Below, in pieces: positions 10,773 through 48,396 of a stretch of DNA of 64,000 bases (its first letter is position 1; every line of letters starts with the position of its first letter). The notes beneath the pieces are model-generated. The model saw only the letters and a list, made by a program, of their open reading frames with translations. It was not told the DNA's origin and searched no databases. The stretch comes from Clostridia bacterium (lineage in GTDB: Bacteria > Bacillota > Clostridia > Christensenellales > SZUA-584). The stretch covers positions 24,511-88,510 of the forward strand of contig JABGQS010000005.1 in NCBI GenBank assembly GCA_018648645.1. The letters run 5' to 3'. The translations under genes were made by a program, and so were the position numbers.

Positions 10773-11960
10773 ATGACTGACATCGAACGCAAGCAGCTTG
10801 AGCTGCACACAGTAACCATTTTCCGCAACCTGCTGGACGATCCGCTAATCAGTCGCTTGTCGGCATTGATGAGCGCGAAGGGGAGCGCAAAGGAGCAGGT
10901 AGACACGTACTGCGAATTTGTGCACGAGCTGCTGCAAAGCGGAGACAACTTGACAGAGTATATTCTGAAGCGCGTGCTGGAGGACGAGAACGTATACATC
11001 GTTCAAAAAGCGCACGACATGCTCGTCAGCGAAGCGCTGGAGAGCAGCGCCAAGCACGAGCTAAAAATACTCGAAAGCATCGCGCGTCTTACGCCCGAAG
11101 ACTTCACTTCGCAAATCGAGTACGACGGGTATCTGCCAAAATGGAACACGTCGCGCATCGATTTCACCGGCGCATACAACGAGCGACTGCGCACCATCGA
11201 CATCGACGGCTACGGCATATTTGCCAAGTTCACGAAGTTTCGCTTCAGAGACGGCGAGATTGTGCCGGTGCAAAGCACAGACCCTGTTCGCTTCGCCGAC
11301 CTTAAGGAGTATGAGCGAGAGCGCAACCAAGTCATAAACAACACGCTTGCGCTTTTGGCCGGTAAAGCGGCGGCAAACGTGCTGCTTTACGGCGACGCGG
11401 GCACAGGCAAATCGTCCACCGTCAAAGCGATTATCAACGAGTATCAAGACAAAGGTCTTCGCCTTATCGAGATTGGCAAAAAGCAAGTCGCCGCGCTTCC
11501 TGCCATCATCGAGAAGCTGAAAAACAATCCGCTCAAGTTCATACTGTTCATCGACGACCTCTCGTTCTCGCAAGAAAACGATGACCTTTACGAGCTGAAA
11601 GCGGCGCTGGAAGGCTCGATATCGTCCATCTCAGCCAACGTGGTCATCTATGCAACCAGCAACCGTCGGCATCTCATCAAAGAAACATTCTCTGACCGAC
11701 AGGGCGACGACGTGCACCGCAACGAAACGCTGCAAGAGCAGTGGTCGCTCTCCGACCGCTTTGGGCTAAAGGTCCCCTTCATGATGCCAAGCAAAGACCT
11801 CTATCTCACCATCGTGCACGAGCTGAAAGCCGACTACAAAATAACAATCGACAACACAGAGCTAGACCTTCTTGCAGAGCGCTACGCCATCGGCGGCAGG
11901 TCGCCCCGTGCCGCGCGCCAGTTTATCGAGCAGCTGAAGTGCGCGGAGGATGGGGAGTAG
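10773..11960 (+). CDS. DUF815-type AAA ATPase
   Basis: 395 aa with Walker A 'GDAGTGKSS' and Walker B 'ILFIDDLSF', then 'VIYATSNRRHL'. Confidence 0.8.
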   Translation: MTDIERKQLELHTVTIFRNLLDDPLISRLSALMSAKGSAKEQVDTYCEFVHELLQSGDNLTEYILKRVLEDENVYIVQKAHDMLVSEALESSAKHELKILESIARLTPEDFTSQIEYDGYLPKWNTSRIDFTGAYNERLRTIDIDGYGIFAKFTKFRFRDGEIVPVQSTDPVRFADLKEYERERNQVINNTLALLAGKAAANVLLYGDAGTGKSSTVKAIINEYQDKGLRLIEIGKKQVAALPAIIEKLKNNPLKFILFIDDLSFSQENDDLYELKAALEGSISSISANVVIYATSNRRHLIKETFSDRQGDDVHRNETLQEQWSLSDRFGLKVPFMMPSKDLYLTIVHELKADYKITIDNTELDLLAERYAIGGRSPRAARQFIEQLKCAEDGE

Positions 11961-11983
11961 GGAGTTAGGGTGTTGGATATGTG

Positions 11984-12012
11984 ACGGCAGTGAGGGATCG
12001 CTGTCGTTTTTT
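11984..12012 (+). terminator. Rho-independent terminator after the DUF815 gene
   Basis: acggcag...ctgtcgt stem plus T6. The 5' arm 'acggcagtgagg' recurs at 12289. Confidence 0.65.
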
Positions 12013-12038
12013 GTTATAGAAAAATTATTCGATAGAAC

Positions 12039-12067
12039 TTGTGGTCGTGAATGTTTTATGGTATAAT
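12039..12067 (+). promoter_or_regulatory. Putative sigma-A promoter (extended -10)
   Basis: TTGTGG, 17-nt spacer, then TGgTATAAT, about 50 nt upstream of the small ORF. Confidence 0.45.
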
Positions 12068-12118
12068 TGTAATAATATGAAAACAGCACATAATAAACGA
12101 GAAGAAAGGAGAACGATT

Positions 12119-12268
12119 ATGGCAGTTAAGCACATTCCAACCAAAGAAGTTCATAAAGGCGTTAAAGGTGGAAAAACTGGTTGTGGTGTTGATACAACCA
12201 AACACCCTAGTCATTGGGTAAATACAAGTGCAAAAAAAACCTGTGATAAGAATGGATGTAAAAACTAA
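12119..12268 (+). CDS. Small Cys/His-containing protein of unknown family (49 aa)
   Basis: RBS aaggagaacgattATG. Sequence MAVKHIPTKEVHKGVKGGKTGCGVDTTKHPSHWVNTSAKKTCDKNGCKN. It is about 69% identical to the N-terminus of the next gene. Confidence 0.55.
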   Translation: MAVKHIPTKEVHKGVKGGKTGCGVDTTKHPSHWVNTSAKKTCDKNGCKN

Positions 12269-12288
12269 AAATCAGTAATAAAGATAAA

Positions 12289-12314
12289 ACGGCAGTGAGG
12301 AACATTGTCGTTTT
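12289..12314 (+). terminator. Rho-independent terminator (weaker copy)
   Basis: acggcag/ttgtcgt stem with G-U pairs followed by TTTT. Related to the terminator at 11984. Confidence 0.45.
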
Positions 12315-12405
12315 ATCTGCTAAAATTTTTTGGTTAGAAAGAAGGACACGAAGTTTAGTGCTATTATTGAAATAAATAGCAAGTATTATGGAAAGGAGAA
12401 AGATT

Positions 12406-13125
12406 ATGGCAGTTAAACATACACCAACAGGTATAGTTCACAGCGGTAAAAAAGGCGGCAAAACAGGGTGCGGAATAGATACCAGAGAGAAGATTAGTCA
12501 CTGGGTAAAGACTAACGAGAAAATAACCTGTGATCAGAATGGTTGTAAAAATAAGAAGAACAATATGAAGAACAATAAGAAGAAAAATAAATTGCTCATT
12601 AAAACATATGAGTTGATTGTGTTTGTTATTTTACTAGTAGTAAGCTCAGTAGCTACATTTGTTTTGGAGGATAAAAACTGTAGGATTTTTCAAGCCTTAG
12701 CTATAGGCGTTTTTTCTTCTACAATAGTTGCTATACTAATATATGTTACTACGATAATTCGAGAAAGAGAAGTGCTAAAGCAAGCTAGAAAAGATATTCT
12801 GTTAAACTTTATTAGAGATGAGATTGATTACATTCACAATATAAATTTAGAGTTAAAATTTTTTGAGAAACATGAAAGCAACTTTGTTGGCATAATAAGG
12901 GTAATTAAAAACAAACCAATATTCTATAAAAATATCTATGAATTAGCTAGCGAGAAAACGAAAGATGCAATTACTAATATAAATCTTAAAACCAATGAGA
13001 TCATACTTGAATTAGAAGAACAGCCAAATGAGGATCAAATACAAAGCTTTACTTCTGATTTAGACGAGTTGATGTTGCCTTTAATAGCTTGTCGAAACGA
13101 AATTGAAAGTAGAAAACTTAACTAA
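12406..13125 (+). CDS. Membrane protein with N-terminal copy of the 49-aa Cys/His module
   Basis: RBS aaggagaaagattATG; the annotated ORF start at 12388 lies inside the RBS. The module is followed by a KNKKNNMKNNKKKNK linker, two hydrophobic helices (LIVFVILLVVSSVATFVL, ALAIGVFSSTIVAILIYVTTII) and a ~120-aa tail. Very AT-rich. Confidence 0.6.
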   Translation: MAVKHTPTGIVHSGKKGGKTGCGIDTREKISHWVKTNEKITCDQNGCKNKKNNMKNNKKKNKLLIKTYELIVFVILLVVSSVATFVLEDKNCRIFQALAIGVFSSTIVAILIYVTTIIREREVLKQARKDILLNFIRDEIDYIHNINLELKFFEKHESNFVGIIRVIKNKPIFYKNIYELASEKTKDAITNINLKTNEIILELEEQPNEDQIQSFTSDLDELMLPLIACRNEIESRKLN

Positions 13126-13295
13126 TTTTATAACTTGGGATATCACGTACCTGCATAGTAGTCTTCTATTTGTTTTTCTCTTACCCAAAAACCCACTCTT
13201 TATTTTTCCCCCACGATACGCTATAATAATCTATGAATATGAAGCATGGAAGAACGGTAGCTTTTTTTTGTGCAAAAACATAAAGGGAGACGCAA

Positions 13296-14588
13296 ATGAT
13301 TTGGAACGAAGGAATCGAGTGCGCATCGCGAGAGAAGATAGAAGCGATACAGCTCGAGCGGCTTAGAAGCACGGTAGAAAACTGTTATAACAACGTGCCG
13401 CATTATAAGAAAAAGCTTGACGCAGCGGGCGTGAAACCAGGCGACTTTAAGACGCTTGCTGACATTACGAAAATTCCGTTTACAGAAAAGGACGACCTGC
13501 GAGCCAACTATCCGTACAAGCTGTTTGCGGTGCCGATGAAAGATGTCGTGCGCATTCACGCGTCGTCGGGCACAACGGGCAAACCAACGGTGGTCGGATA
13601 CACGCAGAACGATTTGGATATGTGGGCAGAGGTTGTGGCACGGCTGGCTTGCGCGGCGGGTGCAACGAGCGAGGACATCGCGCAGATTTCGTTTGGGTAC
13701 ACGCTGTTCACCGGCGCGTTTGGGCTGCACTATGGGCTAGAGAAACTGGGTGCGACGATTATTCCGATATCGGGCGGCAACACAGACCGCCAAATCAACG
13801 TGATGGAGGACTTTGGCACAACGCTGCTGGTCAGCACGCCAAGCTACGCGCTCTATCTTGCCGAGGTCGCGAAAAAGAAGGGCATCGACACCAAGAAGCT
13901 TCCGCTCAAAATCGGCATGTTTGGCGGCGAAGGGCACACAGAGCAAATGCGTGCACAGATAGAAAAGGAGCTCGACATCATCGCGACAGAGAACTACGGG
14001 CTGTCCGAGATTATCGGACCCGGCACCAGCGGCGAGTGTACGGTCAAAGACGGTATGCACATTGCCGAAGACCATTTTTACTGCGAGATTGTAGACAAAG
14101 ACACACTAGAGCCTGTGCCATATGGCGAGCCGGGCGAGATGGTCATCACGTCGCTGAGCAAAGAAGCGCTGCCGATATTGCGCTATCGCACCAAGGACAT
14201 CACGTGGCTGATTCCCGAGAAGTGCAAATGTGGCAGAACGTCGATGCGCATGGCAAAGATACAAGGGCGCACAGACGATATGCTTATCATCCGCGGGGTC
14301 AACGTGTTCCCGTCGCAGATCGAAGGCGTGCTGCTCGATGTCGAGGGCATTGGTCCGCACTACGAGATTATCGTCAAGAAAGACGGTGTGATGGACAAGA
14401 TCGAAGTCATGGTAGAGCTTGTTGACGCAAGCTTGTTAGAGAGCTTCAGCGCACTCGAAGAGATAGAGAAAAAAATTAAACACGATTTGTTTACCATACT
14501 TAACATAAGCGCGGACGTGCATCTGGCAGAGCCGGAATCGCTAAAGCGTTTTGAAGGTAAGGCACAAAGAGTGACAGATTTACGATAA
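13296..14588 (+). CDS. paaK: Phenylacetate-CoA ligase family protein
   Basis: 430 aa with '[17 protein letters not shown]', 'YGLSEIIGPG' and a C-terminal 'GKAQRVTDLR'. Confidence 0.9.
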   Translation: MIWNEGIECASREKIEAIQLERLRSTVENCYNNVPHYKKKLDAAGVKPGDFKTLADITKIPFTEKDDLRANYPYKLFAVPMKDVVRIHASSGTTGKPTVVGYTQNDLDMWAEVVARLACAAGATSEDIAQISFGYTLFTGAFGLHYGLEKLGATIIPISGGNTDRQINVMEDFGTTLLVSTPSYALYLAEVAKKKGIDTKKLPLKIGMFGGEGHTEQMRAQIEKELDIIATENYGLSEIIGPGTSGECTVKDGMHIAEDHFYCEIVDKDTLEPVPYGEPGEMVITSLSKEALPILRYRTKDITWLIPEKCKCGRTSMRMAKIQGRTDDMLIIRGVNVFPSQIEGVLLDVEGIGPHYEIIVKKDGVMDKIEVMVELVDASLLESFSALEEIEKKIKHDLFTILNISADVHLAEPESLKRFEGKAQRVTDLR

Positions 14589-46568: not shown

Positions 46569-48140
46569 TTACTTCTTTCTATTTTTAAATACTCCTGATT
46601 TTGTAATAAACATAGTACTAAATAGCGTTATCGCTATAGCTGCAACTATGGAAGCTATCAACACTATTATCCAAGTTGAATTCTTCTCCTTATACTCTGA
46701 ATCCATTTCTGTATTTTTATCTGTTTCATAATCCTCTAGAGTCTGTTCCTCTTGAACAATCGCGGGCGCGAGTGCAGAGTCATGGGTTGGTTCGGGAGTC
46801 AGAACTGAAGCCCCTTCAGGCGTTTGCGAAGATGTTGGTGAGGATGCTGGAGAAGACATTGGCGAGGATGTTGGCGAAGACATTGGTGAGGATGCTGGTG
46901 AAGCGCTTGGAGAAGATACCGGCCACCAGTCTGCATACAGTATCATATCACCCGTTACCGTGAATGGGAACTCTATTTCTGTTAGCTGCGAAGGTGTTAC
47001 ATGAGCATACCAACCGTGAAACTCGTAACCATTTTTTGCTGGTGTCGGTGGAGCCGTTACCCCATGTCCGGCTGCTTTATACAGTGTCGGCACAGGGCTT
47101 CCCCCTTGCGAATCGAACTCAATAACCCAAACAGCGTGGAACGGAAAACCATTTGCTGCAGCAAAAGCCTCTGCGGTGCTTCCAGTATACCCATAAATGC
47201 CATCGTTGTTTAGTGAAGATGACCTAAACACACCTACACCAATTGTAACTGTTGGACTAAGTATGACAACCTTTTCTAAGCCATAGCAGTTCTTAAGTAC
47301 GCCGTATTCAATCACCTTCACACTTTCTGGAATTATCATTTCCGAAAGTAAATAACATTGTAAAAACGTCCCTGAGTATATGGTTCTCAAGGTGCTGGGC
47401 AAGCTTACATTTTCGAGCGAATTGCCAGAAATTCCTCCAATTGAAACCACACCTTCCGGTATTTCAAGGCTGGTAAGCGAATGACAAGCTCTTAATCCAT
47501 ATAGAAAAACTAAAGTGCTTGGCAGACTTATGCTTTCTAGAGATGTGCATTGAGTAAAAGTATTACTACTTATAGTTGTCACACCTTCCGGTATATCAAT
47601 GCTTATTAGTGCTGTACAGCGATAGAATGCCATAGCATATATATTAGTCAAGGTGCTTGGTAAACTTACGCTGGCAAGCGATGAGCAGTCATAAAACGCT
47701 TCAGCGTGGATGGTAGTCACGCCTTCGGGAATTATGACGCTTGTGAGTGCGCTGCAGCCTCTAAAAGCACCCCATCCTATTTCCCTCAAACTCCTGGGTA
47801 AAATCACGCTGGTCATCAATGTTCTTGAATGAAATGCATATTTGCCTATTTTTTTAACGCCTTCGGGTATTGTTACACTGGTTATACTTATTGTAAACTT
47901 GCTGTAAAATGCATTTTCAGCAATCTCTGTCACAGCTTTCCCGCTCAGTGTGGCGGGTATATTCACAATGTTTCCGCCAGAGTATCCTGACACAGCTACG
48001 GTACCATCTGCAAGTTCAATCCAATTAAAATCACCATCTGTTCCCGTATCACCCTGAACAGAAAAGGCACTTGGAATAAAAACGAACATCAAACATATAC
48101 TCAGTAAAACTGCACTGAAATAACGAATTGAGTTTTTCAT
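46569..48140 (-). CDS. BspA-type leucine-rich-repeat surface protein with Ser/Pro-rich stalk and C-terminal TM anchor
   Basis: Start MKNSIRYF after ggagg (ATG at 48140). Signal peptide, then about 10 repeats of 'L.SV.IPEGVT.I...AF..C.SL'. 'GYEFHGWY' is a Listeria-Bacteroides-type repeat. Stalk 'SPSASPASSPMSSPTSSPMSSPASSPTSS', then a C-terminal hydrophobic helix plus KNRKK. Confidence 0.8.
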   Translation of the reverse strand: MKNSIRYFSAVLLSICLMFVFIPSAFSVQGDTGTDGDFNWIELADGTVAVSGYSGGNIVNIPATLSGKAVTEIAENAFYSKFTISITSVTIPEGVKKIGKYAFHSRTLMTSVILPRSLREIGWGAFRGCSALTSVIIPEGVTTIHAEAFYDCSSLASVSLPSTLTNIYAMAFYRCTALISIDIPEGVTTISSNTFTQCTSLESISLPSTLVFLYGLRACHSLTSLEIPEGVVSIGGISGNSLENVSLPSTLRTIYSGTFLQCYLLSEMIIPESVKVIEYGVLKNCYGLEKVVILSPTVTIGVGVFRSSSLNNDGIYGYTGSTAEAFAAANGFPFHAVWVIEFDSQGGSPVPTLYKAAGHGVTAPPTPAKNGYEFHGWYAHVTPSQLTEIEFPFTVTGDMILYADWWPVSSPSASPASSPMSSPTSSPMSSPASSPTSSQTPEGASVLTPEPTHDSALAPAIVQEEQTLEDYETDKNTEMDSEYKEKNSTWIIVLIASIVAAIAITLFSTMFITKSGVFKNRKK

Positions 48141-48396
48141 ATGGATTACCTCCAAAAAGAAATTGATTCATTTTCAAGTAATAATTTTGAGTATTCATTA
48201 TTGTTCGAGGATTAGTCTGAATAAACGTCTTTTGATGTTACTTTATTATACCATAATATTAATACCTTTACCATATGACAAAAAATTGCTGATAAATTAT
48301 AATTGTCAGCAGTACCGATACTTATTAGACTCATATAATATAAATCTTTTAACGTCGCTTAAAAATAAATGTAGTTAGGGATACAATCCTGCTTTA

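Follow-up and report, generated by a model that had tools for sequence, protein, structure and literature searches.

A tandem pair of 49-residue Cys/His modules, one free and one fused to a predicted membrane protein, in an AT-rich islet of a marine Clostridia genome

The window analysed here is a stretch of 64,000 nucleotides of contig JABGQS010000005.1 from the metagenome-assembled genome (MAG) of a marine Clostridia bacterium, in which an AT-rich islet of ~1.3 kb lies between the gene of a DUF815 ATPase and paaK. We found that the islet holds two diverged units, each made of a hairpin, a promoter-like region, a strong ribosome-binding site and a gene, and that both genes encode the same Cys/His-containing module, once as a free-standing protein of 49 amino acids (aa) and once as the beginning of a 239-aa open reading frame (ORF; 12406-13125, + strand) that runs on into a predicted membrane protein. 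The module is a tight, horizontally mobile and uncharacterised family whose members are nearly always free-standing proteins of 49 aa; the gene at 12119-12268 has this usual form and the 239-aa fusion has not. No published description of the family was found, and the fusion with duplication is a new form of a catalogued, uncharacterised family. As for its role, we lean, without giving it quite an even chance, towards a zinc-held cytoplasmic binding module that is present both free and membrane-tethered and takes part in a genetic-conflict system.

A conserved family of 49-residue proteins

Both copies of the module match phrog_38555, an unannotated PHROGs entry of 49 positions, from end to end (E = 2.7e-22 for the 49-aa protein and 1.2e-23 for residues 1-49 of the long protein). 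The window proteins thus belong to the same family as this entry, except that the 239-aa fusion is not represented there and that the family is nearly absent from phage genomes. When 5.8 billion protein clusters were searched with a word index, ~100 relatives emerged, mostly of exactly 49 aa and with 63-82% identity, and a full HMMER pass over 1.84 billion representatives gave 99 members only and no detectable distant superfamily. Among 185,579 genomes, one per species, 322 coding stretches of the family were found, from which 80 loci were fetched. The hosts of these loci and of the named homologues include Flavobacteriaceae and other Bacteroidota, Balneolales/Rhodothermales-type lineages, Alpha- and Gammaproteobacteria, Bacilli, Clostridia, Halanaerobium, Spirochaetota, Gemmatimonadota, Planctomycetota, Chloroflexota, Chlorobiota/Ignavibacteria and Myxococcota. 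The family therefore spans at least 10 phyla, with mostly marine or saline hosts, and the 63-82% identity holds from Flavobacteriaceae to Bacillota to Planctomycetota. On comparing 80 genes, codon positions 1, 2 and 3 had major-allele frequencies of 0.88, 0.87 and 0.58, respectively, which marks the family as a protein under purifying selection and not as a conserved DNA or RNA element.

Neither window protein matched Pfam, NCBIfam or PADLOC even at E ≤ 10, and Pfam searched at the same threshold with 44 family members gave nothing consistent (one member matched Bacteriocin_II at E = 0.71, which is noise). A literature search with the PHROG identifier and four accession or locus tags returned no paper, and a keyword search gave general defence-island papers only. 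An earlier note, made from the letters of the window alone, had described the family as unrecognised; it is indeed without a match in Pfam, NCBIfam, PADLOC, the Protein Data Bank (PDB) and Foldseek, but it is no orphan, given its PHROG entry, ~100 clusters and 322 stretches. The 49-aa protein is hydrophilic and Lys-rich without any hydrophobic stretch, and as it lacks a hydrophobic helix a type I toxin or small membrane peptide was discarded. A ribosomally made peptide or class II bacteriocin precursor was discarded as well, since conservation extends over the full length, there is no leader-type N-terminus, and no transporter or modification-enzyme genes are neighbours.

The AlphaFold2 model of the 49-aa protein (44 sequences) has a predicted local distance difference test score (pLDDT) of 87 and a predicted template modelling score of 0.60, and within the model of the fused protein (63 sequences) the module reaches pLDDT 95-96. 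Three short strands (residues 2-5, 10-14 and 33-36) are predicted, together with a loop rich in Gly (KGGKTGCG) and a turn at the C-terminus that holds C42 and C47. Foldseek found no relative of this model at E ≤ 0.001 in the PDB or BFVD (best E 6.2 and 1.4, respectively), and a profile search of the PDB also gave none. Seven potential His/Cys ligands lie within the 49 residues, and the C22-G23 and G46-C47 pairs, H12, W33 and C42 are found in both window copies. Close members show no variation at H5, C22 and C42 and at least 90% conservation at H12, H32, W33 and C47; the most distant members retain only H12, C22, W33, C42 and C47. Thus, of the six residues that had been put forward as invariant (C22, H32, C42, C47, H5 and H12), only three are so among close members, and H5 and H32 are lost in distant members. 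From this conservation we infer a single structural metal site formed by H12, C22, C42 and C47, most likely for zinc, H32 being dropped from the ligand set because distant members have lost it. The small metal-binding knuckle proposed earlier is accordingly retained as a conserved Cys/His mini-domain but not as a knuckle or with H32 as ligand, the Cys residues standing singly at 22, 42 and 47 with no CxxC. A classical zinc ribbon, zinc knuckle or C2H2 finger was rejected on the same lack of CxxC and on the lack of a Pfam match and of a PDB match by sequence or fold. A Walker A reading of GxKGGKTG was rejected too, for its spacing misfits GxxxxGK[ST] and residue 19 can be K, T, R or H. The Lys, His and Trp residues on the strands would suit binding to nucleic acid or to an acidic protein surface.

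Two groups of small zinc proteins invite comparison. The haloarchaeal C(P)XCG micro-proteins, of ~60 aa, are small prokaryotic zinc-finger proteins with pleiotropic or unknown roles. The module resembles them in being free-standing, shorter than 60 aa and apparently provided with one Cys/His metal site; it differs in its H-x9-C-x19-C-x4-C pattern without CxxC or C(P)XCG knuckles, in being bacterial and mobile, and in matching no zinc-finger model. TraR/DksA- and YacG-type proteins, some of which are carried on mobile elements, are small zinc proteins with C4 sites containing CxxC pairs, and they bind a universally conserved machine. The likeness here is that of a small, putative zinc protein for which a conserved target would explain the conservation across phyla, whereas the module lacks CxxC pairs, has a different predicted fold and shows no detected similarity to them.

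Two homologous units in a low-GC islet

Windowed GC content is 0.27-0.35 over 12050-13250 and ~0.53 on either side, and the islet gives the lowest-GC 1-kb bin of the entire window (0.311). GC content at third codon positions is 0.22 in the first gene, 0.35 in the second module and 0.28 in the tail of the long protein, as against 0.71 in the DUF815 gene and 0.66 in paaK. The islet DNA is compositionally foreign to the host, which agrees with the earlier suggestion of acquisition from AT-richness by eye. Across the family, gene GC tracks host GC (r = 0.83), so that the window copies are unusually unadapted to their host, as would be expected of a recent arrival. The left edge of the islet, and of its first unit, is the hairpin T1 (Table 1); in the spacer that leads to paaK at the other end no convincing terminator was found. 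When relatives of the DUF815 gene were sought in metagenomes in order to find an empty site, only the same contig came back, and the islet edges given here are approximate. Rfam matches over 11500-13600 were at chance level only. A milder low-GC stretch of the window (GC 0.39-0.43, 46-49 kb) is accounted for by a 528-aa protein encoded at 46569-48155 on the complementary strand, whose leucine-rich repeats look BspA-like by eye and which also has Ser/Pro-rich repeats and a membrane anchor at its C-terminus.

The two module copies are identical at 34 of 49 residues without a gap, as the earlier note had counted by hand, and BLASTP finds the similarity significant (32/47 identities, E = 3e-14). 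The same note was also right that the start context, gaaaggagaaNgattATGgcagttaa, is common to both genes and that two terminator-like hairpins share their 5' arm: the window contains exactly two copies of the 12-mer ACGGCAGTGAGG, one at 11984 in T1 and one at 12289 in T2, each as the 5' arm of its hairpin. Both hairpins run into T residues, and none of 200 shuffles folded as well as either. The non-coding leaders from hairpin to start codon align at a score of 21, against -0.3 ± 4.6 by chance, and none of 1000 shuffles reached 21. For the promoter of unit 1 we read TTGTGG, 17 nt and TGgTATAAT by eye (12039-12067), whereas the scan tool picked TTGTAA, 16 nt and CATAAT (12067-12094); the -10 region of unit 1 aligns with TATTAT of unit 2. 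The units are therefore homologous across hairpin, leader, ribosome-binding site and module.

That the whole unit was duplicated in tandem, as had been proposed, agrees with this homology throughout, except that the event is not recent. As many as 115 of 150 family members resemble copy 1 more closely than copy 2 does, and the DNA of the two copies agrees at 102 of 147 positions, which ranks them 58th of 81. The same codon is used at 18 of the 34 identical residues, and since this share equals the family median, the synonymous sites are saturated. A recent tandem duplication is ruled out by this saturation and by the divergence of the copies, which equals that of members from different phyla; it follows that the duplication would be old. 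An old tandem duplication of the whole unit is the simplest reading of the two sequences, and, with the composition of the islet still so unlike that of the host, it probably took place in the donor. This donor was probably a low-GC, Bacillota-like organism, as suggested by the strong AAGGAG sites and by the best protein matches of both modules, which are from Bacillota (Halanaerobium kushneri and Bacillota MAGs, 39/49). Copy 2 carries three substitutions found in no other member (P30I, N35K and K44Q). Whether homologues always come as a pair of short and long genes had been put forward for a survey; the two-copy arrangement proved to be confined to the window among the 83 loci examined. The hairpins were also considered as parts of an integron cassette and dismissed, for by eye they lack the RYYYAAC and GTTRRRY cores of attC.

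Two further observations concern the non-coding parts of the units. Of eight independent metagenome contigs with the 239-aa gene, five start inside the spacer between the units, at 12369-12381, which reflects either assembly breaks at an AT-rich repeat or population variation upstream. Also, a 15-mer of T1, CGGCAGTGAGGGATC (11985-11999), recurs right before the start codon of a Gemmatimonadota homologue (locus L012, 5982-5996), where its GAGGGA is the ribosome-binding site; at a blastn-short E of 0.11 in a locus set of ~0.9 Mb the recurrence may be due to chance.

Table 1. Features of the islet (positions in the window)
Feature	Position	Strand	Remarks
Hairpin T1 and T-run	11983..12014	+	Terminator-like; 23 nt past the DUF815 stop; 5' arm ACGGCAGTGAGG; -18.1 kcal/mol, z -5.5
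Promoter-like region, unit 1	12039..12094	+	Consensus matches only
Shine-Dalgarno AAGGAG, 49-aa gene	12106..12111	+	
Gene of the 49-aa free-standing protein	12119..12268	+	PHROG 38555 member; probable H12/C22/C42/C47 zinc site
Hairpin T2 (16-bp stem)	12282..12318	+	Terminator-like, for gene 1; homologous to T1; -20.4 kcal/mol, z -7.4
Shine-Dalgarno AAGGAG, 239-aa gene	12393..12398	+	
Module copy 2 (residues 1-49 of the 239-aa protein)	12406..12552	+	All conserved His/Cys/Trp intact; pLDDT 95-96
Lys/Asn-rich linker (residues 50-66)	12553..12603	+	pLDDT <50 to 57
Transmembrane hairpin	12604..12756	+	Helix 1 residues 67-87, six-residue loop, helix 2 residues 94-117
Orphan all-helical C-terminal tail (residues 118-239) and stop	12757..13125	+	Predicted helical bundle
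AT-rich spacer to paaK start	13126..13295	+	Right edge of low-GC islet

The 239-aa fusion protein

The Lys/Asn linker and the two hydrophobic helices that had been noticed behind the second module are both present, and the long protein is predicted to be a membrane protein with a two-helix hairpin. The linker is built partly from a 12-nt unit (AATAAGAAGAAC-like), found three times at 12547-12589, which encodes a KKNN-type stretch. The segment ahead of helix 1 carries a net charge of +9 and the loop one of 0, and by the positive-inside rule the topology is predicted to be N-in/C-in with module and tail both cytoplasmic; this is the side on which a Cys-based metal site would be stable. For the tail, a run of 190 stop-free codons at its composition has P of ~9e-9 (0 of 20,000 shuffles), 71% of bases at codon position 1 are purines, and the other two frames contain 25-26 stops, from which we take the ORF to be genuine. 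When the whole long protein, or its membrane-plus-tail part alone, was searched against the 5.8 billion clusters only the protein itself was returned, and Foldseek with the 239-aa model gave generic helical bundles only in the PDB (best E 0.64). The fusion of module and membrane part occurs in one of 83 loci and is unique among the 99 library representatives as well, and the long protein is found in identical form in 12 contigs of several marine metagenomes besides the Clostridia MAG.

The junction hints at how the fusion came about. The free copy ends in AAA AAC TAA AAA, and at the same point the fused copy reads AAA AAT AAG AAG; four codons on follows Met54 (ATG at 12565), then KNNKKKNKLLIK and the membrane helix, an arrangement that resembles the N-terminus of a membrane protein. 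The fusion therefore probably arose by loss of the stop codon in copy 2, in frame with an adjacent membrane-protein gene. Elsewhere in the family read-through variants are sporadic (P0109 and P0131). In one locus (L025) a separate protein with membrane helices and a coiled coil is encoded 101 nt downstream of the 49-aa gene, with no sequence similarity to the tail in the window. A 484-aa member (P0168) was considered as another long form and set aside, as its key residues are degenerate (H12Q, H32Q and W33R) and it is probably a spurious read-through ORF. Two other members are possible fusions: P0122 (L095, 663-1019) has two hydrophobic segments ahead of the module, with an internal ATG that could give a free form of 53 aa, and P0131 (L096, 923-1219) has a helical C-terminal extension of 49 residues.

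In its layout, an N-terminal cytoplasmic Cys/His domain followed by a positive segment and a membrane anchor, the long protein is like the zinc-associated anti-sigma factors, which are membrane-anchored and have an HxxxCxxC motif, a helical anti-sigma domain and an adjacent gene for an extracytoplasmic function sigma factor. It is unlike them in lacking HxxxCxxC, in the predicted beta-rich module, in its two membrane helices and in its C-terminal domain, which is predicted to be cytoplasmic. Such an anti-sigma factor was hence rejected: the motif is absent, there is no Pfam match, and no sigma gene is adjacent, the neighbours being DUF815 and paaK.

Genomic surroundings and candidate roles

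Family genes have no fixed partner. In 82 loci the immediate neighbours fall into 64 clusters upstream and 76 downstream, which rules out a conserved partner gene, and the presence of an own promoter region is typical, with a Bacteroidetes-type TAnnTTTG box in Flavobacteriaceae and strong Shine-Dalgarno sequences elsewhere. The commonest Pfam families among the 149 nearest neighbours are HsdR-N, SNF2/ResIII, phage integrase, HNH, DUF3800, Mrr, TIR, SIR2 and Bro-N, and the neighbours also match PADLOC models for type I restriction, SIR2 and several candidate systems. On scanning singly the 30 downstream genes that lie on the same strand and encode at least 140 aa, defence-type domains were found in 11: Mrr_cat, HSDR_N (twice), HNH, HNH_5, Z1 with SNF2, PLDc_2, SIR2_2, TIR with SLOG, Metallophos with STAND, and AAA_21 with OLD-TOPRIM. 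In two Bacillota MAGs (L036, 1939-6287; L037, 2291-6249) a Bro-N/DinD-like gene and then, in last place, the 49-aa gene lie in ~4-kb islets that have tRNA-Thr at one boundary and, at the other, a direct repeat of 32 nt from its 3' end, and that contain no integrase; integrases lie within 6 kb in 9 loci. Eight PLSDB plasmids carry the gene (from Vibrio campbellii and V. alginolyticus, and Marinobacter pMAQU01); in 5 of the 8 records no annotated feature lies under the match, the gene table itself being incomplete. Distant relatives (41-44% identity) are found on plasmids of Enterococcus lactis (pY3-3, L101) and Clostridium tagluense (L102), directly after a ParA-like AAA ATPase gene in the former and a resolvase gene in the latter, and the surroundings of the two include a YoeB/YefM toxin-antitoxin pair, an AIPR gene and a Sau3AI restriction-modification system. 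In Flavobacteriaceae (22 loci, including L001 of Kordia antarctica) the gene occupies a conserved hot spot downstream of TPR/HATPase and LuxR-type response-regulator genes, with a variable content of small genes (DUF4177-, YegP-, YidD-, TerB-, HNH- and thermonuclease-like) and in Kordia also Cas9-Cas1-Cas2. None of 50,697 GenBank phage records contained a family match, and IMG/VR gave 3 in 2.9 million contigs, one of which resembles a Bacillaceae type I restriction island; a phage gene was rejected on this near-absence.

Two side observations were made in these loci. A second unannotated small basic family adjoins the 49-aa gene in 8 of them (L005, L013, L021, L022, L023, L047, L060 and L066, from Bacteroidota and Alpha- and Gammaproteobacteria), at up to ~1 kb and often 4-7 nt past the stop of the 49-aa gene; it is made of one or two units of KQRKTSKSAxSAASRVLKDxRTGKDSKKAAGSALSQ, matches nothing in Pfam and does not occur in the window. 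In two Bacillaceae loci (L002 and L030), AAAGGAATATGACGATTTATGTAGAATA is common to the stretch ~40-70 nt upstream of the 49-aa gene; it fits the Bacillus sigma-H consensus (RnAGGAwWW, 11-12 nt, RnnGAATww), a hint at expression in stationary phase.

Because of this defence-island context, a role in genetic conflict is our leading guess. Under our tentative proposal the module would be a self-folding mini-domain, with one zinc held by H12, C22, C42 and C47, and the Lys, His and Trp residues on its three short strands would form a binding face for nucleic acid or for a conserved protein. After the old tandem duplication, the pair would have been acquired together from a low-GC, probably Bacillota-like donor. 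In the long gene, copy 2 would have lost its stop and run into the adjacent membrane-protein gene that once started at Met54, and in the resulting fusion the module would sit at the membrane on its cytoplasmic side, beside a cytoplasmic helical bundle. The module may then recognise one cytoplasmic ligand, which the free copy would bind in solution, whereas the tethered copy would link the same recognition with an effector or tether embedded in the membrane, in the manner of abortive-infection-like systems; the tethered copy might thus be buffered by the free one or face competition from it. The earlier note had speculated on a decoy or regulator paired with a membrane effector, an idea to which the defence-island context of the family and the predicted cytoplasmic site of the module in both proteins lend circumstantial support. 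The transmembrane effectors of CBASS and Pycsar type belong to the abortive-infection or defence effectors in which a single polypeptide carries a cytoplasmic sensor together with transmembrane helices. The long protein is like these in combining a predicted cytoplasmic recognition domain with a membrane hairpin and in belonging to a family of defence islands; it is unlike them in having no cyclase or other signal generator and no PADLOC match, and in lying in an islet between housekeeping genes.

A number of points weigh against this proposal. No neighbour is conserved across phyla, and the association with defence genes may be hitch-hiking in variable regions; the window itself is flanked by housekeeping genes and is not a defence island. 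PADLOC-DB 2.0 holds no model for the family at E ≤ 10, and known PADLOC defence proteins were rejected as an identity for either window protein at that threshold. Zinc binding and expression are both predictions, and the module has neither a CxxC knuckle nor a zinc-finger match in Pfam. No homologue of the membrane-plus-tail part was found among the neighbours of the 82 loci, which leaves the argument from the fusion on a one-genome basis, and the ribosome-binding site ahead of Met54 is weak. Lastly, instead of a duplication two family members may have been captured independently and their flanks later converted, an alternative that gains from the two modules not being each other's nearest relatives.

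Of the rival explanations the one that survives best, although it is rather unlikely in our judgement, makes the module a general small stress, metal or redox protein (e.g. a zinc- or thiol-based buffer of stationary phase) that has no part in genetic conflict and rides in variable regions, the fusion being its membrane-anchored version. The seven possible ligands in so small a protein and the mostly marine or saline hosts would fit such a role, as would the Flavobacteriaceae copies among DUF4177, YegP-like, TerB-like and YidD-like genes downstream of a two-component pair, the sigma-H-like promoter before the two Bacillaceae copies, and the second small basic family of the 8 loci; that gene GC follows host GC also fits long residence. 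Yet the family is very rare and patchy, with 322 stretches in 185,579 species genomes, while identity across phyla stays at 63-82%, which fits mobile cargo better, and the defence-type effectors among the downstream neighbours (11/30) and the occurrence on plasmids and tRNA-bounded islets do not favour it either.

An inhibitor or modulator of a universal host or defence component, carried by mobile elements for anti-defence or host takeover, with the fusion as a lineage-specific variant, is still less likely. Small size, the free-standing form, an own promoter, residence on plasmids and islets and the existence of a PHROG entry are all in keeping with it, and extreme conservation across phyla is what a highly conserved target would lead one to expect. 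The near-absence from phages given above is difficult to reconcile with this role, and so is the usual site, which is in chromosomal islands beside defence genes and not in the leading region of plasmids or the early region of phages.

It is improbable, in our estimate, that only the free 49-aa gene matters and that the 239-aa ORF is an accidental read-through of a decaying copy into an orphan gene. Read-through or frameshift variants do occur sporadically (P0109, P0131 and P0133), the fusion is limited to one population, the second module alone has P30I, N35K and K44Q, and the linker is a slippage-type 12-nt repeat. But a decaying copy would hardly keep its His, Cys and Trp residues intact with a profile score as good as that of copy 1, nor would the fused ORF be expected to retain its own strong ribosome-binding site and the identical protein in 12 contigs of several metagenomes; the predicted topology, too, has the module on the reducing side of the membrane.

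Most doubtful of all is a small DNA-binding accessory of mobile elements, i.e. an excisionase-like recombination directionality factor or a partition adaptor: the protein is basic and tiny, in two islets no other gene separates it from the tRNA-derived direct repeat, integrases lie near 9 loci, and distant relatives follow the ParA-like ATPase and the resolvase on the Enterococcus and Clostridium plasmids, but in most loci integrase, resolvase and ParA are not adjacent, a conserved DNA motif was looked for in the flanks and none was found, and 63-82% identity across phyla is unusual for such normally poorly conserved factors.

The conflict-system proposal also has a more specific form, which we think quite unlikely, wherein a zinc mini-protein of new fold serves defence islands across bacterial phyla as a portable sensor in the cytoplasm, for instance for foreign nucleic acid or for a conserved factor of phage or host, and the window pair is a new, minimal two-gene abortive-infection system. 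If this were true, the window would provide a natural Rosetta stone in which the sensor is fused to its membrane effector and the free paralogue serves as a built-in buffer or antidote. If functional, the family would be among the most conserved unannotated mini-proteins that move between phyla, having no Pfam family, solved structure or fold relative, and such mini-proteins are often missed in annotation. The window is the only known covalent tie of the module to another protein, and with the free paralogue adjacent it offers a testable handle on the family.

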